DNA from: Alphaproteobacteria bacterium
GTDB lineage: Bacteria > Pseudomonadota > Alphaproteobacteria > MPNO01
Direction of reading: 5' to 3'
NCBI GenBank assembly: GCA_965248835.1
Contig: CBDFLJ010000002.1
Location: 1,568,001-1,632,000, forward strand
DNA length: 64,000 bases
In this document: in pieces, positions 16,849 through 63,061 of the stretch
Position numbering within the stretch: the stretch's first letter is position 1
How the letters are laid out: the number at the start of each line of letters is the position of its first letter
Made by a program: the position numbers and the translations under genes
The notes under the pieces: generated by a model
The model's database searches: none
Told to the model about the DNA's origin: nothing
Seen by the model: the letters and a program-made list of their open reading frames with translations, nothing else

Positions 16849-16907
16849 GGACGAACATCCGCCTATCATGAGTCCCGATAAGACAGGGGCGGCTGAAGAG
16901 GTCGGGC

Positions 16908-18227
16908 GTGGAGTGGTGGATCCTCCTGCTCTTTATTTTCGGCGGCGCGATGCTGCTGCTGGCCAAAGGCATGCCGGTGGCCTTCGCCTTCGTCCTGGTC
17001 AACATCCTGGGCGTGCTCTATCTGCAGGGCGGCGGGTCGGCGTTCAACGCGCTGGCGCGCAACATGTTCCAATCGGTCCACAGCTTCACCCTGCTGCCGA
17101 TCCCGCTGTTCGTGCTGATGGGCGAGATCCTGTGGCACTCCAAGGTCGCATTCAACGCGATCGACGCGATCGATAAGCTGCTCGGCCGGCTGCCCGGCCG
17201 GCTCAGCATCCTGACCGTCGTCTCGGGCACCGTCTTTTCCAGCCTGAGCGGGTCCACGGTCGCCAACACCGCGGTGCTCGGCACCATTCTGCTGCCGGAC
17301 ATGGAACGGCGCGGCTACCAGCGGCCGATGTCGATCGGCCCCATCCTGGCGAGCGGCGGTCTGGCAATGATCGTCCCGCCGAGCGGGCTTGCGGTGATCC
17401 TTGCCGCGATCGGCCACCTGTCGATCGGCCGTATCCTGATCGGCGCCTTGATCCCCGGGCTGATCATGGCCGCGCTCTACCTCGCCTATATCCTGATCCG
17501 CTGCCGGATCCAGCCTGGGTTGACCCCGTCCTACGAGGTGGACCCGGTGCCGCTGCGCGAGAGGATCTGGGGGATCATCAAATACATCCTGCCGCTGGGC
17601 ATCATCGTCTTCCTGGTGACCGGCGTGATCGTCGTCGGCGTCGCCACGCCGACCGAGGCCGCCGCACTCGGCTGCCTGGGCGCGTTCATCGTCGCCGCGC
17701 TCTACAAGAGCCTCGACTGGGGGGTGATCAAACGGGCGATGACCGGCACCGTCCAGGTCTCCGTCATTACCCTCACCATCCTGATGGGCGCGGTCGGATT
17801 TTCGCAGATCCTCGCCTTTTCCGGCGCCTCGCGCGGGCTGGTCGAGGCGGTGACCGACCTGCCGGTCCATCCGATCGTCCTGGTGCTCATCATGCAGCTC
17901 ATGGTGCTGCTGCTCGGGATGTTCATGGAGCAGATCTCGATCATGATGATCACGCTGCCGCTCTACATCCCGATCATCAAGGTGCTGGAATACGATCCGA
18001 TCTGGTTCGGCGTTCTGATGCTGATCAACCTTCAGATGGCACTGACCACCCCGCCCTTCGGCATCCTGCTGTTCGTCATGAAGGGAGTCGCCCCGGCCGA
18101 TACCAAGATGCGCGAGATCTACATGGCGGGGCTGCCGTTCCTGGTGTGCGATTTCATTGCGCTGATGATCGTCTTGTTCGTCCCCGACACGGTCGGTTGG
18201 CTGCAGAATCTGGCGTATGGCCGATGA
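16908..18227 (+). CDS. dctM: TRAP transporter large permease #2
   Basis: IPLFVLMGE, SSLSGSTVA, IVPPS, PTEAAA, TTPPFG; clear paralog of dctM #1. Confidence 0.93.
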   Translation: MEWWILLLFIFGGAMLLLAKGMPVAFAFVLVNILGVLYLQGGGSAFNALARNMFQSVHSFTLLPIPLFVLMGEILWHSKVAFNAIDAIDKLLGRLPGRLSILTVVSGTVFSSLSGSTVANTAVLGTILLPDMERRGYQRPMSIGPILASGGLAMIVPPSGLAVILAAIGHLSIGRILIGALIPGLIMAALYLAYILIRCRIQPGLTPSYEVDPVPLRERIWGIIKYILPLGIIVFLVTGVIVVGVATPTEAAALGCLGAFIVAALYKSLDWGVIKRAMTGTVQVSVITLTILMGAVGFSQILAFSGASRGLVEAVTDLPVHPIVLVLIMQLMVLLLGMFMEQISIMMITLPLYIPIIKVLEYDPIWFGVLMLINLQMALTTPPFGILLFVMKGVAPADTKMREIYMAGLPFLVCDFIALMIVLFVPDTVGWLQNLAYGR

Positions 18228-18718
18228 AGCGGATCGTGAAAGCCTATGACGAATTCGTCGTCGCCCTGGGCGTGCTGTCGGGCGTGGCCATCCTGCTGGC
18301 GATGACGCTGGTGGTGGTCGACGTCCTGGGCCGATATTTCCTGAGCCTGCCGTTGGCCTGGGTGAACGAATGGACCGAGCACCTGATCGTGTTCATCCCG
18401 TTCTTCGGCATGGCCTGGCTGGTTCGCCGGCTGGGTGGCCATGTCCGCATCGACTTGGTGGTCAACGCGCTCAGCCCGCGCGCGCAAAACATCCTGGGCG
18501 TCTGGATTGCCGTCCTGTGCGCAGGAACCTGCGCGTTCGCAGCCTACTATGCCGGCATCGAGGCCTGGAAGAACTATGTCCGCGGCATCCAGACAATCGG
18601 CAACTTTCCCGTGCCCAAATACCCGCTGATCGCCGCGGTCTGCCTGGGCATGGGTCTGTGTGCCATCGAGTTCGCGAGGCTTGGAAGGGAGTACTATCAA
18701 AGACTGCGCGGCGGCTAA
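18224..18718 (+). CDS. dctQ: TRAP transporter small permease #2
   Basis: GGHVRIDL, four TM segments, ATGA overlap with dctM. Confidence 0.88.
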   Translation: MKRIVKAYDEFVVALGVLSGVAILLAMTLVVVDVLGRYFLSLPLAWVNEWTEHLIVFIPFFGMAWLVRRLGGHVRIDLVVNALSPRAQNILGVWIAVLCAGTCAFAAYYAGIEAWKNYVRGIQTIGNFPVPKYPLIAAVCLGMGLCAIEFARLGREYYQRLRGG

Positions 18719-18801
18719 CTCGGTTGGCCGACCCCGCCGCAGCGAACAACGTGAACACTGCCGGCGCGCCTTGCCGGTCGACATCAGAACGGGAGGTCAA
18801 G

Positions 18802-19806
18802 ATGCTGCGTAAAGATCTGATAAGAAGCGGCTTTATGGGTGTTGCTCTGGGCGTTGCGCTGGCCGCGGCACCGGGTGTGAACCCGGCAACGGCGGAGACC
18901 GAGCTGAAGGGGCTCGTGCCGTGGCCGCTGCCGTTCCTGCTGAGCGAGCCCTTCATCTGGTTCAAGGACGAGGTGAACAAGGAGCTCAAGGGCGAGATCA
19001 GGGTCAAGTTCCTCGGCGCCAGCGAGGTCGTGCCGGCGTTCGAGCAGTTCGGCGCGCTGCAGGACGGCGTGATCGATACGCTGCTCACCGCGACCGCCTA
19101 TTACAAGGGAACGCTTCCGGTCGGCCGCGCCGGACTGTTCTCCAACATTCCCGTCGGTGAGCGGCGCAAGACCGGCTTCTATCAGTTGATGCGGAAGATC
19201 CACGCGGAGAAGACCGACACGATCTATCTCTCCCAGTCAGGCGGGCCGCCCGGCGGCTTCCGCATCTATACCAGGGAGCGGCCGCGCGCCAAGCCCGACT
19301 TCAAGGGTATGAAGTTCCGTGGCGGCGGCGCCTATTCCCATCTGATCGGCGCGCTTGGTGGAACGACCGTGCTGATGAAGCCGTCGGAGGCCTATACCGC
19401 GCTGGAGCGCGGCATCGTCGACGGGCTCGGCTGGGCGCGGATCGGCGTCGTCGACCGGGCGCTGCACGAGGTGACCAAGTTCGTCGTCGACCACCCCTTC
19501 GAGATGGTCGACGATCCGATCCTCATCCGCGGCGAAGCCTGGCGCAAGATGTCCGCCAAGACCCGTGCCAAGCTCGAGGAGATCGGCGTCAGGATCGAAG
19601 CCAAGACGGACCGGGTGTTCGCCCAGGCCTACAAGGACGAGGACACCGCACTCGGGAAGCGCGGAATGACGTTCTTCAAATACGCCCCCGAAGACGCCAA
19701 GCGATACCTCCAATACGCCCACGAGGAAGGCTGGAAGATGATCATCAAGGCCGATCCGGTCAACGGCCCGAAACTGAAAGAGACCGGATATCGCCCGGTG
19801 ATGTAG
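18802..19806 (+). CDS. dctP: TRAP substrate-binding protein #2
   Basis: Signal peptide, FKGMKFR, EAYTALERGIVDG; GGAGG RBS. Confidence 0.9.
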   Translation: MLRKDLIRSGFMGVALGVALAAAPGVNPATAETELKGLVPWPLPFLLSEPFIWFKDEVNKELKGEIRVKFLGASEVVPAFEQFGALQDGVIDTLLTATAYYKGTLPVGRAGLFSNIPVGERRKTGFYQLMRKIHAEKTDTIYLSQSGGPPGGFRIYTRERPRAKPDFKGMKFRGGGAYSHLIGALGGTTVLMKPSEAYTALERGIVDGLGWARIGVVDRALHEVTKFVVDHPFEMVDDPILIRGEAWRKMSAKTRAKLEEIGVRIEAKTDRVFAQAYKDEDTALGKRGMTFFKYAPEDAKRYLQYAHEEGWKMIIKADPVNGPKLKETGYRPVM

Positions 19807-19991: not shown

Positions 19992-21458
19992 TCAGATGTC
20001 GTCGATCGTCTCGCGCTCGTCCATCGGCCAGGGGTTGGCCGGGCGTTGCGGCTCCGAGCGCACCGGGCCGCGGGCCATGGCGTCCTCTAGCGAGACGATC
20101 GCATCCCCGTAACCGCCGAAATCAAGGAACTCCTCACGCGGCATGGTGAATTCGATCGGCGCCACCAGCGCCGGGGTCGGCACATAGCCGAAGGCGTTGT
20201 CCGGCATGGTGGTGACGTCGAGCATGACCGTGATCCCGCCGCCCGGCCAGACATAAACCGGCGCACCGCCGCAGGTCACCCGCGTGGCGTGGCGCTTGAT
20301 CGAGCGGGTCAGACGGACCGGGTTGACGGTCACGCCGGCGCGCAGGCTGCCGCCCGCCCCGCCCATGAACAGGACGCTGGACAGCGCCGGTTCGCAGTTC
20401 TCGCCGATCCGGTCGACCACGACCTGGAGGTCGGCGGGCATCGGCCCTTCGGCGGGCTTCAACGTCTCGTCAAGCTCGAAATAGGCCGCGTCCTGGCCGG
20501 TGGTCGAGACCATCAGCAGCTTGAGCCCGGGCCAGGCGGTCTTGTCGTCGATCTTCTCGATGATGCTCAGCGGGTCGGTAACGTCGGTGCCGCCCCAGCC
20601 GCCGCCGTGCTCGGCGACTTGGAAATAGCGCCCCGGGGTCGACCTGCGGCCGCGCACCCGGATGCCGGCGGGCGGCATGTCGAGGAATTTCCCCGATTGG
20701 TGCTCGGTCAGGACGCCGGTGATGTGGTCGTCGACCACGATGACCTCATCGACATGGCCGTGCCATTGCGGCGCGAAGATGCCGATGGTGGCCGAGCCGC
20801 AGCCGACCCGCATGCGCTCTTCCCGGTCACCGTCGATGACCGGCGGCTTGCCGGCCTGGACGCTCAGCGTGGCGCCGCCGTCGACGCTCATCTCGACCGG
20901 CTCCTTGTTGCACAGCGCGAGCATCGCCGCGCAGGTGACGTTGCCTTCCTTCTTGGTGCCGCCGGTCAGGTGGCGCACGCCGCCGATCGCCAGCATCTGC
21001 GAGCCGTATTCCGCGGTGGTCACGTGGCCGATCTGCTCGCCCTCGACCCGGATCGGGGCGGGCTCGGGCCCGATATAGCGGTCCGTGTCGATCTTGATCT
21101 TCACGCCGCAATAGGAGAACACGCCCTCGCTGACGACGGTGACCATGTCGATCCCCTCGTGCTCGGAGGAGACGATGAACGGTGCCGGCTTGTAGTCGGG
21201 ATAGGTCGTCGTCGCCCCGATGCCGGTCACGAATACCGGCTTGCCGGAGCGCACCAGCGAACCGTCCCAGACCTCGGCCGCGGTCAGGAACGGCACCAGC
21301 TCGCCGTCGTCGGCGGCGGCCTTCTGGGTGACCAGCAGCGGGTCCACACGGGTCAAGACGCCTTCGATATTGCCGTAGCGGTCGCACGCTCCGGTCTTTC
21401 CCGGGCGGATGCGACACAGCACCGGACAGGCGTCGCAGGTGATGATCTGATCGGTCAT
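19992..21458 (-). CDS. hnr: 6-hydroxynicotinate reductase-like Fe-S flavoprotein
   Basis: CDACPVLCRI.PG.TGACDRY, TTYPDYKPAPFIVS, MRVGCGSATIG, VVDDHITG, RRSTPGRYF; directly downstream of a Mo hydroxylase. Confidence 0.85.
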   Translation of the reverse strand: MTDQIITCDACPVLCRIRPGKTGACDRYGNIEGVLTRVDPLLVTQKAAADDGELVPFLTAAEVWDGSLVRSGKPVFVTGIGATTTYPDYKPAPFIVSSEHEGIDMVTVVSEGVFSYCGVKIKIDTDRYIGPEPAPIRVEGEQIGHVTTAEYGSQMLAIGGVRHLTGGTKKEGNVTCAAMLALCNKEPVEMSVDGGATLSVQAGKPPVIDGDREERMRVGCGSATIGIFAPQWHGHVDEVIVVDDHITGVLTEHQSGKFLDMPPAGIRVRGRRSTPGRYFQVAEHGGGWGGTDVTDPLSIIEKIDDKTAWPGLKLLMVSTTGQDAAYFELDETLKPAEGPMPADLQVVVDRIGENCEPALSSVLFMGGAGGSLRAGVTVNPVRLTRSIKRHATRVTCGGAPVYVWPGGGITVMLDVTTMPDNAFGYVPTPALVAPIEFTMPREEFLDFGGYGDAIVSLEDAMARGPVRSEPQRPANPWPMDERETIDDI

Positions 21459-21462
21459 CGTC

Positions 21463-24225
21463 TCACCCCTTCCCGCCCCTGTCATGGGCAAGGATGGCCG
21501 CTCGCACCCGGCCGGGCGTCGCCGGCGCCTGGGTGATGCGGACGCCGGTCGCATGGTAGATAGCCCCGAAAATCGCCGGCGGCGTGGCGATCAGGGTCGG
21601 CTCACCGATCCCCTTGGCGCCCCATGGGCCGGTCGGCTCGGGGTCCTCGACGACGACGTATTCGATTTCCGGCATGTCGCCGATCGTCGGGATCAGGTAG
21701 TCGTGCAGGTTCTCGGTCCGGCCGGGGACGAACTCCTCCATCAGCGCAAGGCCCAGGCCCTGGGCCACGCCGCCGTCGATCTGGCCTTCGACCTGCTGCG
21801 GGTTGAGCGAGCGGCCGACATCGTGGGCGGCGACCATCCGGCGGACCTTGACGGTGCCGAGCGCCACGTCGACCTCGACCGCGGCCAGGTGGGCGGCGAA
21901 GGCGTAGGTCGCGTAAGGCGTGCCTTGGCCGTTCTCGTCGGAGGGCCCGGTGGGCGGGTCGAACGTCCCCTCGCCCACCAGCACGTCCTCGCCGCGGGCA
22001 AGCGCGAGGCCCGTGAGATCGATCTCTCGGGTCGCATCGCCGTCGCGCAGCTTCAGGCCGCCGTCGCCGAATTCGATGCGCGCATCCTCGCCGACATTTG
22101 CAAGCCGCAGAATCTGGCGCCTCAAATCCTCACCGGCGCGCTTGGCCGCATTACCCGAGATGTAAGCCTGGCGGGACGCCGAGGTCTTGCCGGCATCGGC
22201 CGTCAGATCGGTATCGCCCCAGACCAGGACGATCCGCTTCATGTCGATCCCCAGCCCGTCGGCGGCGCACTGGACCATGGTCGTGTTGGTGCCCTGGCCG
22301 ATGTCCTGGGCGCCGGAATAGAGCGTCACGGTGCCGTCGCGCGTGATGCCCATATGCATGGTCGACGGGTTGGCCATCGAGGTGTTGCCGCAGCCGTACC
22401 ACATGCAGCCCAGCCCGACGCCGCGGCGCAGCACGCCGGAGGATGCGGCGTTGAACGCCTCGGCCTCCTGCTTGTATTGCCGCCAGTAGGGCCGCAGCCC
22501 GTCGAGACATGCCGCAAGTCCGCAGCTCGCCTTCAACACCTGGCCCGTCGCGGTCTCGTCGCCGACCCCGAGCGCGTTCATGCGGCGGAACTCGAGCGCA
22601 TCGATGCCGCACTTCTCGGCCATCATGTCCATCAGCATGTCGTGCAGCAGCGCCGCCTGGGGCACGCCGAAGCCGCGGAAGGCGCCGGCCGGTGTCTCGT
22701 TGGTGTAGACGCCGCACGATGTCGCGGTCACGCAAGGCACACGATAGGGCCCGGTCGCGTGCACCGGCACGCGGTCCTTCACCGTCAGCCCGAAGGAGAT
22801 ATAGGCCCCGGTGTTGAAGTCGCCGTGGAACCTGTAGCCGGTCAGCTTGCCGTCGGCGGTGCAGCCATAAGTGCCGCGGGTGCGCGAAGGGTGGCGCTTG
22901 GTCGAGGACGCCATCGACTCGATGCGGTTGTAGACCGCGCGCACCGGCCGGTCGATGTTCCAGGCTGCGACCGCGAGCAGCGGCTGGACCGACAGGTCGA
23001 TCTTGCCGCCGAACCCGCCGCCGCAGGCCGTCGGCAGCACCCGGACCGACTCGATGGGAATCCCGAGGATGTTGGCGAGCTCGTCGCGGTCCATGTGCGG
23101 CGCCTGGGTGGTGGCGGCGATCTCGAGCCGGTCGCCGACCCGCCGCGCCCATCCGGCCTCCGGCTCGATATAGGCGTGCTCGACGAAAGCGGTCTCGAAG
23201 CCGCCCTCGACGACGATGTCCGACGACGCCAGCGCGGCACCGGCATCGCCTTTCTTGACGAAGCCTCGGGCCATGACGTTGTCGTCCTGGCCGGCATGGA
23301 CGATCGGCGCACCCGCGGCCAGCGCCTGGTCGAGCCCATGGACGTGCGGGCGCACATGGTAGTCGATCGGCACCTCATCGTCGCGGATGCCGTGGACGGA
23401 CGCCTGATCGCCGACCAGGGCAAGCACCGCCTCGCCGCGGTAGCGCACCTCGCCGTCGGCCAGGATCGGCTGGTCCTTGACCGTCGGGTAGGCGCCGAAT
23501 CCGTTCACGGAAGGCACGTCGGCAGCGGTGATCACCCGCACCAGGCCCGGGTGGCTGTCGAACAACGGGGCAAGATCGCCGATCGTGAAGGCGGCGCTCC
23601 AGTGGGGCGAGCGAACGGCGCGCAGCCACAGCGAATCGGCAGGCGCCTGATCGGCACCGAACAGCTCGGTGCCGTCGACTTTCCGCCATCCGTCGGTCTT
23701 GGGCACCCGTGCGCCGACCGCCTCGCCGACCCCCGGGTTGTCGAGCTCGATCCCGTTGGGCTCGATCACGTGCCGCACGGCCTCGACAATCTTCTTGTAC
23801 CCGGTGCAGCGGCAAAGCACGCCGCCCAGCGCGTCGTTGATCGCCGCCTCGTCGGGCGCGTCGGCATGGCTCAACAGGTCGGCCGCGGCCATCAGCATGC
23901 CGGGAGTGCAGATCCCGCACTGCGCCGCGCCGTGCAGGTAGAAGGATTCCTGCAACGCCGCCATGCGGCCGCCGGCATCGGCCAGGCCTTCGACCGTCAA
24001 CACCGCGCGGCCGGCGACCTGACCCACCGGCGTCATGCAGGCGCAGACCTGCCTTCCGTCGAGCAGCACCGTACAGGCGCCGCAATCCCCTGCATCGCAG
24101 CCCACCTTGGTGCCGGTCAGCGCCAGATCCTCGCGCAGCACCTGGGCCAGTCTCCGGATCGGATCGACGCCGACCTCGGCCGGCTTGCCATTGAGGGTAA
24201 AGGCGATCTTCTCAGGCGTGGTCAT
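21463..24225 (-). CDS. Molybdenum hydroxylase with fused N-terminal 2x[2Fe-2S] domain (nicotinate dehydrogenase-like)
   Basis: GTKVGCDAGDCGACTV, QCGICTPG, CRCTGY, GGGFGGK, AFRGFG, DIGQG, AKGIGE. Confidence 0.88.
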   Translation of the reverse strand: MTTPEKIAFTLNGKPAEVGVDPIRRLAQVLREDLALTGTKVGCDAGDCGACTVLLDGRQVCACMTPVGQVAGRAVLTVEGLADAGGRMAALQESFYLHGAAQCGICTPGMLMAAADLLSHADAPDEAAINDALGGVLCRCTGYKKIVEAVRHVIEPNGIELDNPGVGEAVGARVPKTDGWRKVDGTELFGADQAPADSLWLRAVRSPHWSAAFTIGDLAPLFDSHPGLVRVITAADVPSVNGFGAYPTVKDQPILADGEVRYRGEAVLALVGDQASVHGIRDDEVPIDYHVRPHVHGLDQALAAGAPIVHAGQDDNVMARGFVKKGDAGAALASSDIVVEGGFETAFVEHAYIEPEAGWARRVGDRLEIAATTQAPHMDRDELANILGIPIESVRVLPTACGGGFGGKIDLSVQPLLAVAAWNIDRPVRAVYNRIESMASSTKRHPSRTRGTYGCTADGKLTGYRFHGDFNTGAYISFGLTVKDRVPVHATGPYRVPCVTATSCGVYTNETPAGAFRGFGVPQAALLHDMLMDMMAEKCGIDALEFRRMNALGVGDETATGQVLKASCGLAACLDGLRPYWRQYKQEAEAFNAASSGVLRRGVGLGCMWYGCGNTSMANPSTMHMGITRDGTVTLYSGAQDIGQGTNTTMVQCAADGLGIDMKRIVLVWGDTDLTADAGKTSASRQAYISGNAAKRAGEDLRRQILRLANVGEDARIEFGDGGLKLRDGDATREIDLTGLALARGEDVLVGEGTFDPPTGPSDENGQGTPYATYAFAAHLAAVEVDVALGTVKVRRMVAAHDVGRSLNPQQVEGQIDGGVAQGLGLALMEEFVPGRTENLHDYLIPTIGDMPEIEYVVVEDPEPTGPWGAKGIGEPTLIATPPAIFGAIYHATGVRITQAPATPGRVRAAILAHDRGGKG

Positions 24226-25064
24226 TCCTGGTTCTCCAGCTCGGCCAGCATGCGCCGGACCAGCGTCAAGGCGGCATCCATTCGGTAGGCGGCGGTCCCG
24301 CGCACATCGTCTATCGGCGAAAGCACACCCAGGTGCTCGGCGGCGGCGACTGCGGCCATGCCGCCGTCGATCGGCCGGCCGATCAGCGCCTGCTCGAGTT
24401 CGGGCAGCCTCCGGGCGACCGCCGAGCACGACCCGATCGCAAGCCGCGCGCCGGCGACCGTGCCGTCCGGGGCGGGCTCGACGACACCGGCCACCATGAC
24501 GATCGAGATCACCAGATACTTGCGCGCGCCGAGCTTCAGGAAGCTGCTCCGCGCGCCGTCGGCCGGCTTGGGGATCGTGATCGCGGTAACCATCTCGCCC
24601 GGCGCGCGGACCGTCTGGCGGTTGCCGGTGACGAATTCGGCCAGCGGCACCGAGCGCGCGCCGGCCGCCGAGGCGAGTTCGACGACCGCATCGAGGCTGA
24701 GCAGGCCGGGCACGCCGTCGGCGGCAGGCGAGGCGTTGCAGACATTGCCGACGATCGTGCCGGCGTTTTGCACCTGGATGCCGCCGACCTCTCGTGCGGC
24801 CCGCTTCAAACCGTCGAAGCAGGGCGGCAAGGCGGCGGCGATCAGCTCCGACCAGGTCACCAGCGCACCGATCCGGAAGTGGTCCGCGTGCTCGGTGATC
24901 CCCCGCAGCGCCGCGATCCCGGTGACGTCGAGCACGTCGTCATCGAGCGGCTTGCCGACCCGGGCCGGGTAGTAGTCGGTGCCGCCGGCGACGATCGCGC
25001 GCGGCGTCTCGTTCAGCGCCGCCAGAGCCGTGTCCAGTTCGCTGGGGCGTAGATAGCTTGCCAT
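24222..25064 (-). CDS. FAD-binding subunit of the molybdenum hydroxylase (NdhF/CoxM-like)
   Basis: AGGTD, QVQNAGTIVGNVCNASPAAD, PIDDVRGTAAYR; ATGA-coupled to the Mo subunit. Confidence 0.9.
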   Translation of the reverse strand: MASYLRPSELDTALAALNETPRAIVAGGTDYYPARVGKPLDDDVLDVTGIAALRGITEHADHFRIGALVTWSELIAAALPPCFDGLKRAAREVGGIQVQNAGTIVGNVCNASPAADGVPGLLSLDAVVELASAAGARSVPLAEFVTGNRQTVRAPGEMVTAITIPKPADGARSSFLKLGARKYLVISIVMVAGVVEPAPDGTVAGARLAIGSCSAVARRLPELEQALIGRPIDGGMAAVAAAEHLGVLSPIDDVRGTAAYRMDAALTLVRRMLAELENQE

Positions 25065-25125
25065 TTCCTGCGGGTCCCGATCAGCCTGTCGGACAAAGCT
25101 TCGCACGGCACGGTTGCCGCCGCAA

Positions 25126-25175
25126 AATTGTTCGTGTACATACAAATTAGAAGTCAACCCGACCCGACCTGTCAA
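25126..25175 (-). promoter_or_regulatory. Candidate promoter and MarR operator of the hydroxylase-hnr operon
   Basis: Minus strand TTGACA-N18-TCTAAT followed by the near-palindrome at 25130-25143 (GTTCGTGTACATAC); a matching copy lies at 30119. Confidence 0.65.
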
Positions 25176-25360
25176 GCATTAGTCGGTGCGGTCTCATTTC
25201 GGATGAGTCGTGCGTGGACCGGATCGAATCGGTGCCACGGCCCAATGCGGCGTGCTATAGTCCGGCCGCGCCGGCCCCGCGTGGGTGCCGGTTGACTTTT
25301 GCGGATCGGGGGCCATGACTCCGTTCGGCGGGCAAGAATTCCACGCGGATGGGTGGGACG

Positions 25361-27238
25361 ATGGCGACCAAGCTTGCGAGTTCCGAATCGGCCGGGAAGG
25401 CTCCCCGCAAGTCGCTCGATTCGGTGGTGATCCGGTTTGCCGGCGATTCGGGCGACGGGATGCAGTTGACCGGGACCCAGTTCACCCAGTCGACCGCTCT
25501 GATGGGCAACGACCTGGCCACCTTCCCGGATTTCCCGGCCGAGATCCGCGCGCCGATCGGCACGACCTATGGCGTCTCGGCCTTCCAGATCAACTTCGCC
25601 TCCTATGACATCATGACGCCGGGCGATGCGCCGGACGTTCTGGTCGCCATGAACCCGGCCGCGCTCAAGGTCCACCTGCGCGACGTGCCCAAGGGCGGAA
25701 CCATCGTCGTCAACACCGACACGTTCAACAACCGCAACATCGCCAAGGCGGGGTATGCCGCCGACCCGTTGGAAGACGGCACGCTCGACAACTATGTCGT
25801 CATCTCGATCGAAATCCAGAAGATGACGTTGGCGGCGGTCAACGGGCTGGGGCTGTCCAACAAGGAAGCGGTGCGCTGCAAGAACATGTGGGCGCTGGGG
25901 CTGATGTGCTGGATGTACGACCGCGACCGGCAGCCGACGGTCGACTGGCTCAACCAGCGGTTCGGCGAACGCGCGCCGGCGCTTGCCGCAGCCAACATTG
26001 CCGCGCTCAACGCCGGCCACGCCTACGGCGAGACCGCCGAGCTGCCGAGCGGCGCCCAGGCCTATGTCGTACCCAAGGCCGACGTGCAGCCGGGCATCTA
26101 CCGCGCGGTCACCGGCACCGAGGCGATTGCCTGGGGGCTGGTCACCGGCGCCCACAAGGCGGGGTTGCCGCTGTTCCTGGGCTCCTACCCGATCACTCCA
26201 GCCTCGGCATTGCTGCACACGCTGTCGAACCTCAAGCAGTACGGCGTAACGACGTTCCAGGCCGAGGACGAGATCGCAGCGGTGTGCTCGGCGATCGGCG
26301 CCTCGTTCTCCGGCGCGATCGGCGTGACTTCGAGCTCCGGGCCCGGCATCGCGCTCAAGACCGAGGCGATCGGACTTGCGTTCGCTGCAGAGCTGCCTCT
26401 GGTGGTGGTCAACAGCCAGCGCGGCGGGCCTTCGACCGGGCTTCCGACCAAGACCGAGCAGTCGGATCTGTTCCAGGCGGTCTATGGCCGAAACGCCGAT
26501 TCGCCGTTGCCCGTCCTCGCCTCGCGGACCGCGGGGGACTGCTTCTTCACCGCGATCGAGGCGGTCCGGCTGGCGGTAAAATACATGACCCCTGTGATCC
26601 TGTTGACCGACGGCTATCTCGCCAACGCGGCCGAACCCTGGGAGATCCCGGATGTCGACGACATCCCCGACTTCAAGGTCGCGCTGCGGACCGACCCGGA
26701 GGGATTCCATCCCTTCCTGCGCGATGACAAGACGCTGGCGCGCAACTGGGCGGTGCCCGGCACGCCGGGTCTGATGCACCGGATCGGCGGCATCGAGAAG
26801 AGCTACGAGACCGGGCACATTTCCTATGACCCGGACAACCATCACCGGATGACCAAGGTCCGCGCGGCCAAGGTCGACGGCATAGCCAACGACATCCCCG
26901 AGCAGGAGGTCGCCATAGGCCCGTCCTCCGGCAAACTCGCGGTCGTCGGCTGGGGCTCGACGTTCGGTGCGATCAACCAGGCGGTCGGCCGGGTCAACGC
27001 TGCGGGCCTGGATGTCGCCCATGTTCACATCCGCCATATCTGGCCGCTGCCCAGGAACCTCGGCGACCTGTTGCGCGGCTACAAAAAGATCCTGGTGCCG
27101 GAGATGAACGACGGCCAGTTGGTGACGGTCCTGCGCGCGCAGTACCTGGTGCCGGCCGAAGGGCTCAACCAGATTTCCGGCCTGCCCTTCAAGGTCTCCG
27201 ATCTCGAGGCGGCGATCCGCGAGCGCGTGGAGAACTAG
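25361..27238 (+). CDS. korA: 2-oxoacid:ferredoxin oxidoreductase alpha subunit
   Basis: IRFAGDSGDGMQLTG, YPITPAS, QAEDEIAA, SSGPG, QRGGPSTGLPTKTEQSDL. Confidence 0.92.
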   Translation: MATKLASSESAGKAPRKSLDSVVIRFAGDSGDGMQLTGTQFTQSTALMGNDLATFPDFPAEIRAPIGTTYGVSAFQINFASYDIMTPGDAPDVLVAMNPAALKVHLRDVPKGGTIVVNTDTFNNRNIAKAGYAADPLEDGTLDNYVVISIEIQKMTLAAVNGLGLSNKEAVRCKNMWALGLMCWMYDRDRQPTVDWLNQRFGERAPALAAANIAALNAGHAYGETAELPSGAQAYVVPKADVQPGIYRAVTGTEAIAWGLVTGAHKAGLPLFLGSYPITPASALLHTLSNLKQYGVTTFQAEDEIAAVCSAIGASFSGAIGVTSSSGPGIALKTEAIGLAFAAELPLVVVNSQRGGPSTGLPTKTEQSDLFQAVYGRNADSPLPVLASRTAGDCFFTAIEAVRLAVKYMTPVILLTDGYLANAAEPWEIPDVDDIPDFKVALRTDPEGFHPFLRDDKTLARNWAVPGTPGLMHRIGGIEKSYETGHISYDPDNHHRMTKVRAAKVDGIANDIPEQEVAIGPSSGKLAVVGWGSTFGAINQAVGRVNAAGLDVAHVHIRHIWPLPRNLGDLLRGYKKILVPEMNDGQLVTVLRAQYLVPAEGLNQISGLPFKVSDLEAAIRERVEN

Positions 27239-27239
27239 C

Positions 27240-28271
27240 ATGAACGTCCAGACCCCCCTCGAGCAGCTCAAGCCGGCCGATTACGCTTCCGACCAGGAGG
27301 TCCGCTGGTGCCCGGGCTGCGGCGACTACGCGATCGTGAAGTCGGTGCAGCGGACGATGGCCGACCTCCAGCTTCGGCCGGAAAAGGTGGTGTTCATCTC
27401 CGGCATCGGTTGCGCCGCGCGGTTCCCCTACTACATGGCGACCTACGGGTTCCACACGATCCACGGCCGCGCGCCGGCGCTGGCGACCGGCACCAAGCTC
27501 GCCAACCCCGACCTCGACATCTGGGTGGTCATGGGCGACGGCGACTGCCTGTCGATCGGCGGCAACCACACGCTGCATGCGCTGCGCCGCAACGTCGACA
27601 TGCAGATGCTGCTGTTCAACAACGAGATCTACGGGCTGACCAAGGGCCAGTATTCGCCGACCTCGCGGCTCGGCACCCGCTCGCCCTCGACCCCGCAGGG
27701 CTCGGTCGATTCGCCGGTCAATGCCACCGTGTTCGCGCTTGGCGCCGGCGCCAGGTTCGTCGCCCGGTCGGTCGACACCAACCAGAAGCACCTGCCCGAG
27801 ATGCTCAAGCGGGCGCATGCCCACAAGGGCGCCTCGTTCCTCGAGATCATCCAGAACTGCATCGTCTACAACGACGGCGCGTTCGCGGAGTGGACCGATA
27901 GGGCCGCAGCGGCCGATTCGCAGGTGGTGGTCGAAGACGGCAAGCCGCTGATCTTCGGCAAGGATGGCGAAAAGGGCTTGCGCATCGTACCGGGCGCGCT
28001 GGCTCTGGAGGTCGTCACCATCGGCGAGGACGGCGTGACCGAAGACGACATCCTGGTCCATGACGAGACCGACCGGGCCTTGGCAGGGCTGCTCGGGGCG
28101 ATGGAGCACCCCGACTTCCCGGTGGCGGTCGGCGTGCTGTATTGCGATCCCGCCAAGCCCTACGAAGCCGCCGTCCACGAGCAGATCGAGCAGATCAGGC
28201 AGAAGACACCGGCCGGCGATCTCAATGCGATGCTGCGGCGCGGCCGTACCTGGACCGTCGCACCCGGCTGA
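27240..28271 (+). CDS. korB: 2-oxoacid:ferredoxin oxidoreductase beta subunit
   Basis: WCPGCGD, SGIGC, HGRA, GDGD TPP motif, YGLTKGQYSPT. Confidence 0.92.
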   Translation: MNVQTPLEQLKPADYASDQEVRWCPGCGDYAIVKSVQRTMADLQLRPEKVVFISGIGCAARFPYYMATYGFHTIHGRAPALATGTKLANPDLDIWVVMGDGDCLSIGGNHTLHALRRNVDMQMLLFNNEIYGLTKGQYSPTSRLGTRSPSTPQGSVDSPVNATVFALGAGARFVARSVDTNQKHLPEMLKRAHAHKGASFLEIIQNCIVYNDGAFAEWTDRAAAADSQVVVEDGKPLIFGKDGEKGLRIVPGALALEVVTIGEDGVTEDDILVHDETDRALAGLLGAMEHPDFPVAVGVLYCDPAKPYEAAVHEQIEQIRQKTPAGDLNAMLRRGRTWTVAPG

Positions 28272-28341
28272 GGCCCCCGCGGGGCTTTACCGCCACAAGC
28301 CCTCGGCTATCATGGCGCCGATCGAGCCTCAGGAGCCATGA

Positions 28342-29658
28342 ATGTCCCGTAGCGTCGCCGTCGTGGGGTCGGGTCCCGGCGGCATGTATGTTGCCCAAGG
28401 GCTGATCGACAAGTTGCCCGGCTGTCGGGTCGACGTGTTCGACCGACTGCCCTCGCCTTTCGGGCTGATCCGCGGCGGCGTAGCGCCGGATCATCAGAAA
28501 ACCAAGCGCGTCAGCCGTGCCTTCGAGAAGACCATGCTTGCCGAGGGCGCGCGCTTCATCGGCAATGTCGAGGTCGGCCGCGACATCGAGATCGGCGCGC
28601 TGGAGGAGGCCTACGACGCGGTCGTGCTCGCCTATGGCGCGCCTTTCGACAACCGGCTCGGGATCCCCGGCGAGGACAAGATCAACGTCTTCGGCTCCAA
28701 CGCCTTCGTAGGCTGGTACAACTGCCACCCGGACTTCATCGACCTGAACCCGGACCTCAACGTGTCTGCGGTCGCGGTGATCGGCGTGGGCAATGTCGCC
28801 GTCGATGTCGCCCGGGTGCTCGCCAAGACGCCGAAGGAGATGTCGGTCACCGATCTGGCGCCCTATGCCGGGCCGGCGATTGACGCGGCCCCGATCCGCG
28901 ACATCTACATGTTCGGCAGGCGCGGGCCGGTCGAGGCGGCGTTCACCAACGTCGAGCTCCGCGAGATGGGCGAGCTCGAGAACGCGCAGCCCATCGTCAA
29001 TCTCGGCCACCTGCCCGAGGAGGTCGTTGCCCCCTACATGTCCGATCGCGACCTGCGCCTGAGTGCCAGGAACGTCGCCACCATGCGCGGCTTCGATGCC
29101 GTCGGCAGCGAGGGCAAGGCCAAGCGCGTCCATTTCAGCTTTTTCGCAAGCCCGTTGGAAATCCTGGGCGGTGACCGGGTCGAGGGTGTGCGCCTGGAAC
29201 GCACCCGGGTCGAGGACGGCCGCTGCATCCCGATCGGCGAGACCTTCGAGGTCGCGTGCGGGCTGGTGATTACCTGCATCGGCAGCCGCGCCGACCCGCT
29301 CGACAGCGTGCCGTTCGACGACCGCAAGGGGATTGTGATCCACGAGAACGGCCGGGTGCGGCCCGGCCTGTACGCCGCCGGCTGGGTCAAGCGCGGCGCG
29401 ACGGGAACCATCGGCACCAACAAGAACGATTCGCTGGCCGTGGTCGACCTCCTGATCGGCGACCTCGCCGGCCCCGAGAAAAACGGACCGGCCGCATTCG
29501 ATGCCATCGCACAGGAGCGGAGCTTGCGGGTCGTCAGCTACCCCGACTGGCAGATCATCGACCGCCTGGAGACCGAAGCCGCCCCGCCGGGCGCCCCACG
29601 CAGGAAATTCGTCACGCCGGAAGAAATGCTTGCGGCGCTAGGCCAGCCGCCGCAATAG
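28342..29658 (+). CDS. Ferredoxin-NADP(+) reductase, FprA/adrenodoxin reductase type
   Basis: VGSGPGG, PFGLIRGGVAPDH, FVGWYN.HPD, IGVGNVAVDVAR, GWVKRG.TG.IGTN. Confidence 0.9.
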   Translation: MSRSVAVVGSGPGGMYVAQGLIDKLPGCRVDVFDRLPSPFGLIRGGVAPDHQKTKRVSRAFEKTMLAEGARFIGNVEVGRDIEIGALEEAYDAVVLAYGAPFDNRLGIPGEDKINVFGSNAFVGWYNCHPDFIDLNPDLNVSAVAVIGVGNVAVDVARVLAKTPKEMSVTDLAPYAGPAIDAAPIRDIYMFGRRGPVEAAFTNVELREMGELENAQPIVNLGHLPEEVVAPYMSDRDLRLSARNVATMRGFDAVGSEGKAKRVHFSFFASPLEILGGDRVEGVRLERTRVEDGRCIPIGETFEVACGLVITCIGSRADPLDSVPFDDRKGIVIHENGRVRPGLYAAGWVKRGATGTIGTNKNDSLAVVDLLIGDLAGPEKNGPAAFDAIAQERSLRVVSYPDWQIIDRLETEAAPPGAPRRKFVTPEEMLAALGQPPQ

Positions 29659-30096
29659 CGCCAGGAAGGTCCGCCGCTCCACCTCGCTCAAAGGTGCGAG
29701 CGTCGCATCGGTAATCGCGCGGCCGTTCCGCGTGATCGCTGCAACGAGATCGCGGCCTGACGCGGTCAGGCTGAGGACGAGGCGGCGGCGGTCGGACGCA
29801 TCGGGGCGGCGGTCGATCAGCCTGCGGGCCAACAAGCGCTTGATCACGCCGTGCATGGTGGCCGCGTCCATTGCGGTCCGGCGGCCGAGCTCGTTCTGGG
29901 AGACCTCGCCAAGGTCGCCGAGCTTGACCAGGGCTGCGAACTGCAGCGGCGTGGCCTGGTCGTCGCCGACCATCGACTGGAAGATCACCGCATGCCGCTG
30001 GTGCGCTCGGCGCAGCAGGTGGCCGACCTGGTCCTCCAGGACATAGTCCGCGGCAGGAACAAGTTCGGCTTCTGCGGAATCAGCGGCCGGTTTCAT
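29638..30096 (-). CDS. nicR: MarR family regulator, NicR-like
   Basis: YVLEDQVGHLLRRAHQRHAVIF, D.ATM.GVIKRL, DRRR; context next to nicotinate genes; alternative start at 30114. Confidence 0.75.
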   Translation of the reverse strand: MKPAADSAEAELVPAADYVLEDQVGHLLRRAHQRHAVIFQSMVGDDQATPLQFAALVKLGDLGEVSQNELGRRTAMDAATMHGVIKRLLARRLIDRRPDASDRRRLVLSLTASGRDLVAAITRNGRAITDATLAPLSEVERRTFLALLRRLA

Positions 30097-30114
30097 CGAA
30101 CGGCCGATCCTCAT

Positions 30115-30159
30115 AATTGTTCGTATACAAACGATGGCCGAGCCCTGGAGTCGTGTCAA
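30115..30159 (-). promoter_or_regulatory. Candidate autoregulated promoter and operator of the MarR gene
   Basis: Minus strand TTGACA-N17-CATCGT overlapping the near-palindrome GTTCGTATACAAAC (30119-30132). Confidence 0.65.
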
Positions 30160-30228
30160 GCCGACGGCTCGATCAGACCATGTATGCGCGGCGGCATGGA
30201 CCCCGGCGCGGGGCCGGGATGGACGGGT

Positions 30229-31452
30229 TCAGATCACCTCGGCCTCGCGTAGTGCGGCGATGGCGCTTGCGTCGAGGCCCAGCACGTCGGCAAGCACCGT
30301 CTCGGTGTGCTCTCCCAGCACCGGGGCGGCACCGGGGTAGTCGTGCGGGTGACCGACATAGCGGATCGGGTTGGCGACGCCCGGGACCGTGCCGGCTTCG
30401 GCATGGGAAAGCGCGATCCGCGTGCCGCGGTGTCGGGTCTGGGGGTCGGAAAAGATCTGGGCGAGGTCGTTGATCGGGCCGCACGGCACGCCGACGGCTT
30501 CGAGGTCGGCAAGCCACGCCGCGCGGGTCCTGGTCGCCATCATGTCGGCGATCTCGGCGACCAGCTCCTCACGGTGTGCGACACGGCCGGCATTGGTGGC
30601 ATAACGCGCATCCCCGGCCAGATCCGGCCGGCCGCCGGCATGGCAGAACCGATCGAACTGGGCATCGTTGCCGACCGCGACGATCACATGATCGTCTGCG
30701 GTCTTGAACGACTGGTATGGCACGATGTTGGGATGCGCGTTGCCCATCCGACCGGGCGCCGTGCCGGTCGCCAGAAAATTCATCGCCTGATTGGCGGTCG
30801 CGGCCACGGTGACGTCGAACAGGGCCATGTCGACGTGGCGGCCCTGGCCGGTCCGATCGCGCTCGCGCACCGCAGCCAGGGCAGCGATCGTGGTGTAGAG
30901 CCCGGTCAAGACGTCGGACAGCGCCACACCGATTTTCTGTGGACCGCCGCCCGGCACCCCGTCGCGTTCGCCGGTGATCGACATGAAGCCGCCCATCGCC
31001 TGGATCATGAAGTCATAGCCCGCGCGCTTGGCGTAGGGTCCGGTCTGGCCGAACCCGGTGATCGAGCAGTAGATCAGCCCGGGATTGACTTCCTTGAGGT
31101 CGTCATAGGCCAGCCCGTAGCGGGCCAGCCCGCCGACCTTGTAGTTCTCCAGCAGGATGTCGGATTTGCCGGCCAGTTCGCGGGCGATGCGCTGGCCGTC
31201 GGGCTTGGCCAGATCGAGCGTGACCGACTTCTTGCCGCGGTTGGCACAGTGGAAATAGGCCGCGTCCGCGGTCTCGTTGCCCTCGCGGTCGCGGATGAAA
31301 GGCGGGCCCCAGACACGGGTGTCGTCGCCGGTGCCGGGACGCTCGATCTTGATCACCTCGGCGCCGAGGTCGGCCATCGTCTGCCCGGCCCAGGGTCCGG
31401 CCAGAATTCGGCTGAAATCGAGGACCCGGAGCCCCGATAGCGGTCCGGACAT
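30229..31452 (-). CDS. CaiB/BaiF family III CoA-transferase (likely glutarate CoA-transferase)
   Basis: LSGLRVLDFSRILAGP, DLGAEVIKIERPG.GDDTR, NRGKKS, SITGFGQTGP, GYD; 3 bp downstream of gcdH. Confidence 0.9.
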   Translation of the reverse strand: MSGPLSGLRVLDFSRILAGPWAGQTMADLGAEVIKIERPGTGDDTRVWGPPFIRDREGNETADAAYFHCANRGKKSVTLDLAKPDGQRIARELAGKSDILLENYKVGGLARYGLAYDDLKEVNPGLIYCSITGFGQTGPYAKRAGYDFMIQAMGGFMSITGERDGVPGGGPQKIGVALSDVLTGLYTTIAALAAVRERDRTGQGRHVDMALFDVTVAATANQAMNFLATGTAPGRMGNAHPNIVPYQSFKTADDHVIVAVGNDAQFDRFCHAGGRPDLAGDARYATNAGRVAHREELVAEIADMMATRTRAAWLADLEAVGVPCGPINDLAQIFSDPQTRHRGTRIALSHAEAGTVPGVANPIRYVGHPHDYPGAAPVLGEHTETVLADVLGLDASAIAALREAEVI

Positions 31453-31455
31453 CGT

Positions 31456-32670
31456 CTACGTGAACGCCTGGATGCCGGTCTGCGCGCGCCCCAGGATCAG
31501 CGCGTGGATGTCATGGGTGCCCTCGTAGGTGACGATGGTTTCCATGTTCATCAAGTGGCGCATAACGTGATACTCGTCGACGATCCCGTTGCCGCCGTGC
31601 ATGTCGCGCGCCTCGCGAATCATGTCGCGTGCCTTGCCGGTCGAGTTGCGCTTGAGCATCGAGATCGATTCGGGCGAACAGGTGCCATCGTCCATCATCC
31701 GGCCGAGCTGGAGACAGGCATGCAGACCGATTGAGATTTCGGTCTGCATGTCGGCGAGCTTTTTCTGGATGAGCTGGTTTGCCGCCAGGGGCCGGCCGAA
31801 CTGGCTGCGCTCCAGCGTGTACTGGCGCGCGGCGTGCCAGCAGAACTCCGCCGCACCCAGCGCGCCCCATGCGATGCCGTAGCGCGCGTTGTTGAGGCAG
31901 CCGAACGGCCCGCCGAGCCCCTTTGCGTGCGGCAGACGGTTCTCCGCCGGGACGAAGACATCCTCCATCACGATCTCGCCGGTGACCGAGGCGCGCAGCG
32001 ACAGCTTTCCGGTGAGCTTGGGCGCACTCAGCCCCTTCATCCCGCGCTCCAGAATGAAGCCGCTGATCACGTCATCGTCGTCCTTCGCCCAGACGACGAA
32101 CACGTCGGCGATCGGCGCGTTGGAGATCCACATCTTGGTGCCCTTGAGCACGTACCCGCCGTCGACCGACCGGGCGCGGGTCCTCATTCCGCCCGGATCG
32201 GAGCCGTGGTCGGGCTCGGTCAGCCCGAAAGCGCCGACCCATTCGCCGGTCGCGAGCCTGGGCAGATATTTCTGGCGCTGCTCCTCGGTGCCGTAGTTGT
32301 AGATCGGCCACATCACCAGCGAGGACTGCACCGACAGCGTCGAACGGTAGGAGGAATCGACGGCCTCGATTTCGCGCGCGATCAGCCCGTAGCAGACATA
32401 GTTGGCACCGGCGCAGCCATAGCCATGGATGGTCGAGCCGAGGAAGCCGAGCGCGCCCAGTTCGTTGATGATCTCGCGGTCGAAGGACTCCTCGTTATAG
32501 GCCTCGATGATCCGCGGCAGCAGCTTCTCCCGGGCATACTGGCGGGCGGTGTCGCGCGCGAGCCGCTCGTCCTCGCGGAGCTGGGTTTCGAACAGAAGCG
32601 GGTCCTGCCAGTCGAACTTGGCCCATTTGCGTGGGGTATGCCCGCTCCCGGCCTCGACCTTCGTCGCCAT
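31456..32670 (-). CDS. gcdH: Glutaryl-CoA dehydrogenase
   Basis: [67 protein letters not shown]. Confidence 0.95.
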
Positions 32671-32801
32671 GGCTCTTGATCCTTCATTGTCCCAGCCCGG
32701 TTTCTCGGCCGGACTATAGGCGAAAATACCGGGCGTGTGTATTGACGGCACCGGCGGAATTTGGCCAAACCTTGACCAGCGAACAATTGCCGGAGGCGGG
32801 T

Positions 32802-60721: not shown

Positions 60722-63061
<2,340 letters not shown>

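Follow-up and report, generated by a model that had tools for sequence, protein, structure and literature searches.

The locus described here raises the question of why genes for a 2-oxoacid:ferredoxin oxidoreductase (korA-korB) and an NADPH-linked flavoprotein (fpr) lie between a nicotinate-type operon and a MarR regulator gene. It occupies positions 19992-32670 of the 64,000-nucleotide stretch of an alphaproteobacterial genome that was analysed, hereafter the window. The reductive route through 1,4,5,6-tetrahydro-6-oxonicotinate (THON) in aerobes has reportedly been known biochemically since the work on Azorhizobium, and its reductase, Hnr, depends on ferredoxin (EC 1.3.7.1). In the open-access literature, we found no explanation for the reduction of 6-hydroxynicotinate at ferredoxin potential in aerobes. 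The initial annotation had proposed that korAB-fpr powers this reduction of the pyridine ring and that carbon leaves through glutaryl-CoA.

The hydroxylase-hnr operon and the glutarate genes

Nine genes were confirmed on the strands and at the coordinates given below, and GC3 values of 0.80-0.91 indicate that all nine are coding. On the minus strand, as initially annotated, the FAD-binding subunit of a hydroxylase (24222-25064, 280 aa, domains FAD_binding_5 and CO_deh_flav_C) heads an operon continued by a fused [2Fe-2S]/molybdopterin subunit of the xanthine-dehydrogenase family (21463-24225, 920 aa, domains Fer2, Fer2_2, MoCoBD_1 and MoCoBD_2), whose start overlaps the stop of the FAD gene (ATGA), and by hnr (19992-21458), encoding a 488-aa homolog of 6-hydroxynicotinate reductase. 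The hydroxylase, a putative nicotinate hydroxylase, reaches no curated NCBIfam cut-off, and we therefore infer its substrate from context. The survey covered 152 distinct hnr loci, collected as a first set of 80 and a second set of 79 centred on a Rhizobiales Hnr (the Azorhizobium locus is not among the latter). In most loci, hnr is immediately preceded by an ortholog of the Mo subunit gene; at a threshold of at least 40% identity and within the fetched flanks, a match is present in 61 of the 79 second-set loci, and one stands beside Hnr in most of the 80 first-set loci. All three proteins are 54-91% identical to their counterparts in loci with the full canonical cluster.

All 8000 candidates scored are Hnr homologs, and wherever NCBI or JGI gives a name, it is "6-hydroxynicotinate reductase"; annotated hnr products encoded on plasmids are 59-65% identical to the window Hnr. 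The latter has an N-terminal cysteine cluster (C8, C11, C15, C25) and no fused ferredoxin domain. It matches no Pfam or NCBIfam model and no sequence in the PDB, and a Foldseek search of the PDB with its AF2 model (pLDDT 88.9) returned no match at E <= 0.001 (best TM 0.12). The present analysis also provides leads on Hnr itself, a protein with no Pfam family, solved structure or recognisable fold, and on the ApbE-like protein conserved next to it. The identification of the FAD subunit, the fused FeS/Mo subunit and Hnr as the known proteobacterial nicotinate-to-THON module is well supported, and the initial reading of the locus as nicotinate-type holds: an hnr homolog and an adjacent Mo-hydroxylase are both present and match the set known from the THON route.

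The window contains no enamidase gene; the best enamidase-like gene of the genome lies at C2:232272-233423 and is 79% identical to the hnr-linked one of locus L040. UPF0280 follows hnr in 142 of the 159 loci of the two sets, the window, L001 and L009 being without it at this position, and the UPF0280 and AA_synth copies of this genome are found at C2:1869035-1870514. Since ring-opening and accessory genes are encoded elsewhere, the window lacks a complete unit. Both proteins were also considered as redox partners: UPF0280 was rejected, as it resembles a flavin transferase (ApbE-like fold), and AA_synth gave structural matches to two uncharacterised structures only. Convergent with hnr, an Amidohydro_2 gene and TRAP transporter genes (DctM, DctP) occupy 15994-19806 on the plus strand. 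They possibly encode an uptake system or an accessory hydrolase/decarboxylase, and whether they belong to the module is uncertain; on the short contig L030, hnr has an Amidohydro_2 match of 89% identity as its neighbour.

At the other end of the locus, also on the minus strand, gcdH (31456-32670) precedes a family III CoA-transferase gene (30229-31452). Similarity to solved decarboxylating glutaryl-CoA dehydrogenases (3GNC, 3EOM, 1SIQ, 1SIR) extends over the full length of GcdH (E about 1e-177). The CoA-transferase has NF052585 as its best family (511 bits, below the equivalog cut-off of 750) and aligns with human SUGCT (9BR7) at E 1e-99; by these matches it is probably a succinyl-CoA:glutarate CoA-transferase. 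A second gcdH was looked for in the genome, and the next best copy is only 35% identical; as the sole close copy, gcdH probably serves other pathways too. The proposed glutaryl-CoA exit is thus upheld in the identity of both genes, which match the glutarate route of Azorhizobium, and weakened in their linkage: the pair adjoins hnr only in the window and four other loci, and in all five close relatives tested, gcdH is either 63-485 kb away from hnr or on a different contig.

The MarR regulator and its candidate operators

The MarR gene (29638-30096, minus strand) closes the gcdH-CoA-transferase-marR string. The closest solved relatives of its product are 2NNN and BpsR (6PCP/6PCO) at E 3e-28, the next MarR following at 4e-13. 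According to PMC6837509, 6-hydroxynicotinate is contacted in Bordetella BpsR by Tyr15, His23, Arg26 and His32, and in the alignment all four residues are identical in the window protein. Assignment of the regulator to the 6-hydroxynicotinate-sensor type is well supported by this conservation; it is BpsR-like, and not like Pseudomonas putida NicR as initially suggested.

Analysis of the promoter regions revealed two copies of an 18-bp imperfect palindrome (consensus TTGTTCGT-N2-ACGAACAA). Copy 1 (25126-25143) sits between the divergent FAD and korA genes, upstream of the former by 62 bp and of the latter by 206 bp, and copy 2 (30115-30132) precedes the marR start codon by 19 bp. The pattern has three sites in the whole 4.9-Mb genome, two of them in this module. 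The 9-mer AATTGTTCG occurs three times in the window, always in module promoter regions, compared to a mean of 0.24 in shuffled sequences, none of 100 reaching three. Its minus-strand occurrence at 32780-32788, 110 bp upstream of gcdH, is a half-site only and a weak candidate. In 13 other loci (L001, L003-L008, L028, L031, L032, L046, L048, L053), a conserved counterpart of the palindrome precedes the FAD gene by 40-80 bp, and L017 and L019 each have two copies in the korA-hnr intergenic region. The 18-bp elements are operator-like, and we regard them as putative MarR operators at nicotinate-module promoters. Because the single intergenic copy is nearer to the FAD gene than to korA, control of korA remains only putative.

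The electron supply of Hnr

The divergent korA-korB-fpr trio is present on the plus strand (25349-29658) as initially described, and profile and structure-database matches support its identification. KorA (25349-27238) is the alpha subunit, with a fused gamma domain, of a two-subunit 2-oxoacid:ferredoxin oxidoreductase (TIGR03710, 642.7 bits for a cut-off of 482.75). KorB (27240-28271), the TPP/[4Fe-4S] beta subunit, matches the TPP-binding domain PF02775 and scores just under the cut-off of TIGR02177 (258.4 against 261.9 bits). The closest solved relative of KorAB is 6N2N; the family includes broad-specificity enzymes, and 2-oxoglutarate is the putative substrate. Fpr (28342-29658) is an NADPH:ferredoxin reductase of the adrenodoxin-reductase/FprA type, its residues 4-434 matching 1CJC at E 1e-91 and Mycobacterium tuberculosis FprA (1LQT) at E 6e-84.

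We propose that the locus is a variant of the THON-route cluster that acts as one regulon, probably 6-hydroxynicotinate-responsive, in which korAB-fpr feeds Hnr and carbon exits as glutarate; we give this explanation as a whole an even chance of being right. The hydroxylase would convert nicotinate to 6-hydroxynicotinate, which Hnr would reduce to THON. A ferredoxin encoded elsewhere would be reduced by KorAB at the expense of 2-oxoglutarate, by Fpr at the expense of NADPH, or by both, and would in turn feed the N-terminal Fe-S cluster of Hnr. Enzymes with genes at other sites of the genome would carry out ring opening and decarboxylation, and the glutarate formed would be activated by the CoA-transferase and then oxidised by GcdH. 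The BpsR-type MarR would bind the palindromes between the hydroxylase operon and korA and at the marR promoter, and would leave them upon binding 6-hydroxynicotinate. What the genes are, how they are ordered, the operator motif and the retained ligand residues were observed directly; from these we infer every catalytic and regulatory step, above all the electron flow from KorAB/Fpr to Hnr.

A role of korAB-fpr as electron supply of Hnr is plausible from gene context. Across the survey, KorA and hnr are at most 10 kb apart in 14 of the 80 first-set and 3 of the 79 second-set loci, or 17 of the 152 distinct ones. The linked genes occur in three orders: divergent upstream, co-directional upstream (L144, L159) and co-directional downstream (L154). 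Loci L016-L018 repeat the order GcdH-CoA-transferase-MarR-Fpr-KorB-KorA-Hnr, and L019 does so with Fpr missing. On the Hnr tree, korAB linkage appears in three places, and at least five changes are forced by well-supported branches. By eye, a sequence resembling the end of a MarR gene is seen just before korA in L144 and L159.

The same survey also feeds the main rival explanation, in which korA-korB-fpr is a general 2-oxoglutarate/ferredoxin/NADP+ module, for central metabolism or redox balance, that merely adjoins hnr, and Hnr takes its electrons from another source. No KorA was found within the fetched flanks of 135 of the 152 loci, among them L002 and L004, two close relatives with full flanks. 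The linked loci are concentrated in one Hnr clade (15 of 21 rows), which fits inheritance of a single rearrangement. Co-occurrence speaks for a link: among 401 sampled genomes, KorA orthologs are present in 32 of the 64 that bear hnr and in 64 of the 337 that do not, an association that is overstated because relatives are not independent. In the remaining 32 hnr-bearing genomes, Hnr must draw on another source. In this class-level sample, hnr and korA are no more than 11 kb apart in only 4 of the 64 genomes, and in at least 7 genomes more than 200 kb of the same contig separate them. The trio itself is a general conserved alphaproteobacterial unit and not a nicotinate-specific invention: a full-length KorA ortholog is encoded in 92 genomes, in 41 of which KorA and Fpr start within 5 kb of one another, and hnr is missing from 26 of these 41. 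The genome was searched for a second, housekeeping korAB and has none; korA, korB and fpr are each the sole copy and must also serve their general role, whatever that is.

The rival also gains from the absence of a ferredoxin gene in the 64-kb window, where small ORFs were scanned for Fe-S motifs and coding GC3. The "own ferredoxin supply" of the initial annotation was thus overstated, although the ferredoxin-reducing enzymes are indeed encoded. Two candidate ferredoxins in other loci were rejected: in L003 and L006-L008, the small ORFs that separate fpr from korB resemble a PIN-toxin/antitoxin pair by eye, and the 121-aa protein of L016-L019 is a Rieske-type protein (sequence read for L016-L018).

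Against mere adjacency, the linkage recurs outside the main clade in the two co-directional orders. The KorA proteins of L144, L159 and L154 are 57-59% identical to that of the window, compared to up to 70% for unlinked orthologs, which is more in keeping with separate recruitment than with a single inherited block. The palindrome pairs of L017 and L019 are also close to korA. In addition, other hnr clusters and homologs carry different ferredoxin-reducing genes or domains. FNR-type ferredoxin-NADP reductases are encoded in the hnr clusters of Sulfitobacter and Neorhizobium plasmids and of four distinct loci; among distant homologs, P0127 and P0134 have an N-terminal 2x[4Fe-4S] domain, and P0128 and P0133 a fused Fer4_20 + Pyr_redox_2 NAD(P)H-reductase module. 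Both are absent from the window Hnr, and it is plausible, from these fusions and the FNR genes, that this protein needs a separate donor. Weighing both sides, we regard the general-module explanation as somewhat doubtful, though a genuine contender. The initial claim that korAB-fpr powers ring reduction accordingly gains from the repeated linkage in three orders and loses from the generality of the trio, the KorA-free hnr genomes and the window's lack of a ferredoxin; the claimed neighbourhood is recurrent, yet a minority arrangement, with gcdH and the CoA-transferase in few loci.

A second rival makes Fpr the donor, passing electrons from NADPH to ferredoxin or directly to Hnr, with KorAB present as the usual genomic partner of Fpr. 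It would agree with the NAD(P)H-dependent modules fused to some Hnr homologs, with the FNR-type NADPH reductases just mentioned, and with the presence of Fpr beside KorAB in 13 of the 14 linked first-set loci. With Fpr as donor, NADPH would be partly regenerated by the hydroxylase, making the conversion of nicotinate to THON nearly redox-neutral. However, KorAB stands beside hnr without Fpr in L144, L154, L159 and L019, and NADPH alone is a weak donor for reduction at ferredoxin level; we consider this reading improbable. Slightly less probable still is a substrate other than nicotinate (another pyridine or N-heterocyclic carboxylate): it would account for the sub-threshold hydroxylase scores, for the TRAP transporter in place of the ABC type of described clusters, for the non-adjacent enamidase-like gene, UPF0280 and AA_synth, and for the 70 places in the genome that match Mo-hydroxylase large subunits, which make paralogous specificities likely, but it sits badly with the four BpsR contacts kept in the regulator and with the identity of Hnr and both hydroxylase subunits to their canonical-cluster counterparts.

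Returning to korAB-fpr as the supply of Hnr, a broader proposal would be that a low-potential source (KorAB, AdR-type Fpr, FNR-type reductase, or fused ferredoxin or GltD-like domains) has repeatedly and independently been joined to hnr in aerobic Alphaproteobacteria that use ring reduction to degrade nicotinate, and that here a BpsR-type repressor co-switches KorAB and Hnr. We advance it tentatively, as slightly less probable than an even chance. If true, 2-oxoglutarate of the TCA cycle would pay for pyridine dearomatisation in an oxygen-respiring cell. With KorAB/Fpr as donor, the pyridine ring would join benzoyl-CoA as a second case in which 2-oxoglutarate oxidation funds dearomatisation, and a trio that many Alphaproteobacteria carry would be assigned a function. 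Given the conserved operator and the BpsR-type sensor, the donor idea is directly testable. Among open-access texts, we found no paper linking korAB or fpr to hnr.

Relation to known systems

BpsR is a Bordetella MarR-type repressor of nic genes that is released by 6-hydroxynicotinate (PMC6837509). The window MarR shares with it the four ligand-contacting residues and counts it among its closest solved relatives. Unlike BpsR, it stands beside a reductive hnr cluster and not beside the oxidative nicC/nicX, and its operator is proposed from sequence.

In Thauera, the ring-reductase cluster includes a ferredoxin gene, and Azoarcus evansii has a three-subunit KorABC. The precedent invoked by the initial annotation was confirmed in PMC9973337: in Thauera aromatica and some Rhodopseudomonas palustris strains, benzoyl-CoA reductase receives its electrons from KorAB. 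As in Thauera, the genes for a putative two-subunit 2-oxoglutarate:ferredoxin oxidoreductase adjoin that of a ferredoxin-dependent ring reductase. The locus differs from Thauera in the pyridine ring, in a reductase that needs no ATP, in an extra gene for an NADPH-linked flavoprotein, in a window without a ferredoxin gene, and in a trio that is widespread without ring-reduction genes.

The proteobacterial THON-route cluster was reportedly first noted by Alhapel et al. in 2006. Eubacterium barkeri, an anaerobe with plentiful reduced ferredoxin, ferments nicotinate via nicotinate dehydrogenase, Hnr and enamidase; the first two reactions are the same here, and the Hnr proteins are homologous. A Bradyrhizobiaceae homolog is 42% identical to the Eubacterium barkeri enzyme; its cluster is also conserved in Azorhizobium caulinodans, where the nicotinate pathway runs via THON and glutarate (PMC3511419). 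The clusters named are those of Azorhizobium caulinodans ORS571, Bradyrhizobium japonicum, Rhodopseudomonas palustris HaA2 and Bradyrhizobiaceae SG-6C, and the cluster as described there encodes enzymes for the first three steps together with an ABC transporter and two proteins that are conserved but unknown (PMC3511419). Like these clusters as described, the present locus has hnr beside a molybdenum hydroxylase, a MarR gene nearby and carbon expected to leave via glutarate; unlike them, it has its enamidase-like gene and the two unknowns, UPF0280 and AA_synth, elsewhere in the genome, a TRAP transporter as neighbour, and korAB-fpr and gcdH/CoA-transferase adjacent. What appears to be new here is the position of korAB-fpr and gcdH/CoA-transferase beside an otherwise known THON-route cluster.

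Gene organization and a putative shared operator

The region from 19992 to 32670 contains nine genes of coding-type composition (GC3 of 0.80-0.91), and their coordinates, domains and families bear out the gene content proposed in the initial annotation. On the minus strand, a string preceded by a putative operator is headed by the gene for the FAD subunit (24222-25064), followed by that for a fused [2Fe-2S]/molybdopterin (Mo) subunit (21463-24225), whose first bases overlap the FAD stop codon, and by hnr (19992-21458), which begins 5 bp past the end of the Mo gene. Divergent from this string, the plus strand carries korA (25349-27238), korB (27240-28271) and fpr (28342-29658). The nearest solved relative of KorA is the Magnetococcus enzyme 6N2N, and Fpr is of the adrenodoxin-reductase (AdR)/FprA type. 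A second minus-strand string, convergent with fpr, consists of gcdH (31456-32670), a family III CoA-transferase gene (30229-31452) and, last, a MarR gene (29638-30096).

The closest solved relatives of this MarR protein are 2NNN and Bordetella BpsR (6PCP/6PCO), with E-values of ~3e-28, compared to 4e-13 for the next MarR. According to PMC6837509, BpsR contacts 6-hydroxynicotinate through Tyr15, His23, Arg26 and His32, which Pseudomonas putida NicR does not share. Since all four residues are identical in the aligned window protein, the regulator is BpsR-like and not, as initially labeled, NicR-like.

An operator-like imperfect palindrome with the consensus TTGTTCGT-N2-ACGAACAA is found in the FAD/korA intergenic region (25126-25143, 62 bp from the FAD start) and 19 bp upstream of marR (30115-30132), with a half-site 110 bp upstream of gcdH. 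Its 9-mer core has three occurrences in the window, where 0.24 would be expected, and 18 in the whole 4.9-Mb genome; sites matching the full pattern number only three genome-wide. Another 13 hnr loci, six of them lacking korAB, have the palindrome ahead of the FAD gene at a distance of 40-80 bp. In L017 and L019, korA and hnr diverge directly from a short intergenic region that contains two copies, one near each gene. Taken together, this is the strongest evidence obtained from sequence alone for a single regulon comprising both divergent operons and marR; gcdH may also belong to it, on weaker evidence.

The third and last site in the genome (contig C1, position 1485994; L164:9994) immediately precedes a VanA-type Rieske oxygenase gene, which is followed by an AA_synth paralog. 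Genes for a luciferase-like monooxygenase, a 3-HAO-like dioxygenase, an amidohydrolase and a Mo hydroxylase are found nearby. A Rieske oxygenase gene also adjoins that of MarR in a Sulfitobacter hnr cluster.

Possible coupling of korAB-fpr to Hnr

The initial annotation proposed that korAB-fpr powers ring reduction by Hnr. A survey of hnr neighborhoods revealed KorA in the flanks of 14 of the 80 loci of a first set and 3 of the 79 of a second (17 of 152 distinct loci), counts that are lower bounds because flanks extended at most 10 kb and some were ended by the contig. Three gene orders are observed: divergent upstream korA (window, L001, L003, L005-L009, L013-L019), a co-directional MarR-KorA-KorB-FAD-Mo-Hnr series (L144 and L159, with an apparent MarR seen by eye before korA), and co-directional KorA at the distal end of the operon (L154). 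In an Hnr tree (FastTree, 145 sequences), linked loci occupy three separate positions, and the well-supported branches force at least five changes of linkage. KorA of L144, L154 and L159 shows 57-59% identity to the window protein, compared to up to 70% for unlinked orthologs, which fits a separate recruitment of korAB in these loci. Several close relatives have two small ORFs, PIN-domain toxin/antitoxin-like by eye, between fpr and korB (L003:2684-3163, L006:2427-3177, L007:2506-3244); these are absent from the window.

Hnr has no match in Pfam, NCBIfam or the PDB, but belongs to a large family labeled 6-hydroxynicotinate reductase by NCBI and JGI, with 289 cluster representatives matching at E <= 1e-30 in a 50%-identity library. 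Its confident AF2 model (pLDDT 88.9, pTM 0.86) has no counterpart among PDB folds (best TM 0.12). In distant homologs, a fused N-terminal 2x[4Fe-4S] domain (P0127, P0134) or a Fer4_20 + Pyr_redox_2 (GltD-like) NAD(P)H-reductase module (P0128, P0133) is present, whereas proteobacterial Hnr offers only an N-terminus with four cysteines. This difference speaks for coupling, as does the FNR-type reductase present in other hnr clusters.

On the other side, among 401 genomes sampled across the class, hnr is present in 64, a KorA ortholog in 96 and both in 32, so that 32 of the 64 hnr genomes lack KorA; korA and hnr lie within 11 kb in only four. The starts of KorA and AdR-type Fpr are at most 5 kb apart in 41 of 92 KorA-ortholog genomes, 26 of these without hnr, which indicates that the korA-korB-fpr trio is a general unit. 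No description of its function was found in the literature searched, and no ferredoxin gene was found in the 64-kb window. The trio is single-copy in the genome, with no second, housekeeping korAB. We regard coupling to Hnr as plausible, with about even chances.

The glutarate pair

The enzyme identities of the proposed glutarate exit are sound: GcdH matches solved glutaryl-CoA dehydrogenases (E 1e-177) and the CoA-transferase human SUGCT (E 1e-99), although the score of this transferase falls short of the succinate-glutarate CoA-transferase threshold in NCBIfam. L016-L018 again show the order GcdH-CoA-transferase-MarR-Fpr-KorB-KorA-Hnr, and L019 has it minus Fpr, while L015 retains the CoA-transferase. 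However, all five close relatives tested have gcdH either 63-485 kb away from hnr or on a different contig, and the window gene is the only close copy in its genome (next best, 35% identical). In our reading, the two genes are a glutarate pair of shared, general use, which in some lineages lies in the transcription string of the nicotinate regulator.

Comparison with the known nicotinate cluster

PMC3511419 reports a conserved cluster, common to Azorhizobium caulinodans ORS571, B. japonicum, R. palustris HaA2 and strain SG-6C, that includes a homolog with 42% identity to Eubacterium barkeri Hnr, and it states that the Azorhizobium route goes on via glutarate. The core studied here is a member of this proteobacterial cluster for the route via 1,4,5,6-tetrahydro-6-oxonicotinate (THON), the product of Hnr, with two cluster features absent from the window. 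Across the 159 fetched loci (152 distinct), the usual order is FAD, Mo, Hnr, a 291-aa protein and one or two AA_synth (PF06684) genes, usually near an enamidase-like amidohydrolase or a hydantoinase A/B pair and often a Liv-type ABC transporter. In 142 of 159 loci, the gene directly downstream of hnr encodes the 291-aa UPF0280 protein (NF003322); the window is an exception. The genome's copies of UPF0280 (contig C2:1868990-1869898; L160:8990-9898) and AA_synth are 270 kb off, within a TRAP-transporter operon, and C2:232272-233423 holds its best enamidase-like gene; the pathway within the window is thus incomplete.

The confident UPF0280 model (pLDDT 88.5) matches the fold of ApbE/FmnB/Ftp flavin transferases (Foldseek probability 1.00, E 7e-5 to 1e-3) and of DVU1097. 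Hnr of E. barkeri contains covalent flavin, and the modeled fold suggests that UPF0280 may attach flavin to Hnr.

In the second set, 41 of 79 loci (within L087-L157) have a linked hydantoinase/oxoprolinase A/B pair, as does a Neorhizobium plasmid locus (L162), compared to only 6 of 79 with a linked enamidase-like gene; the pair may perform an ATP-dependent opening of the THON lactam. In the marine relatives L011, L013, L015, L016 and L018, an isochorismatase-family gene adjoins the enamidase-like gene. It possibly encodes a nicotinamidase, in which case the pathway would reach back to nicotinamide.

Catabolic families are greatly expanded in this genome, with seventy places matching the Mo-hydroxylase large subunit, and UbiD-family decarboxylases, hydantoinase A/B pairs and Amidohydro_2 genes present by the dozen; two members lie in the window (about 57002-59161 and 60740-63022).

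The combination of korAB-fpr and gcdH/CoA-transferase with a BpsR-type sensor is undescribed in the open-access literature searched. Compared to the known THON-route cluster, the new elements would be these two attached modules, placed under that sensor.
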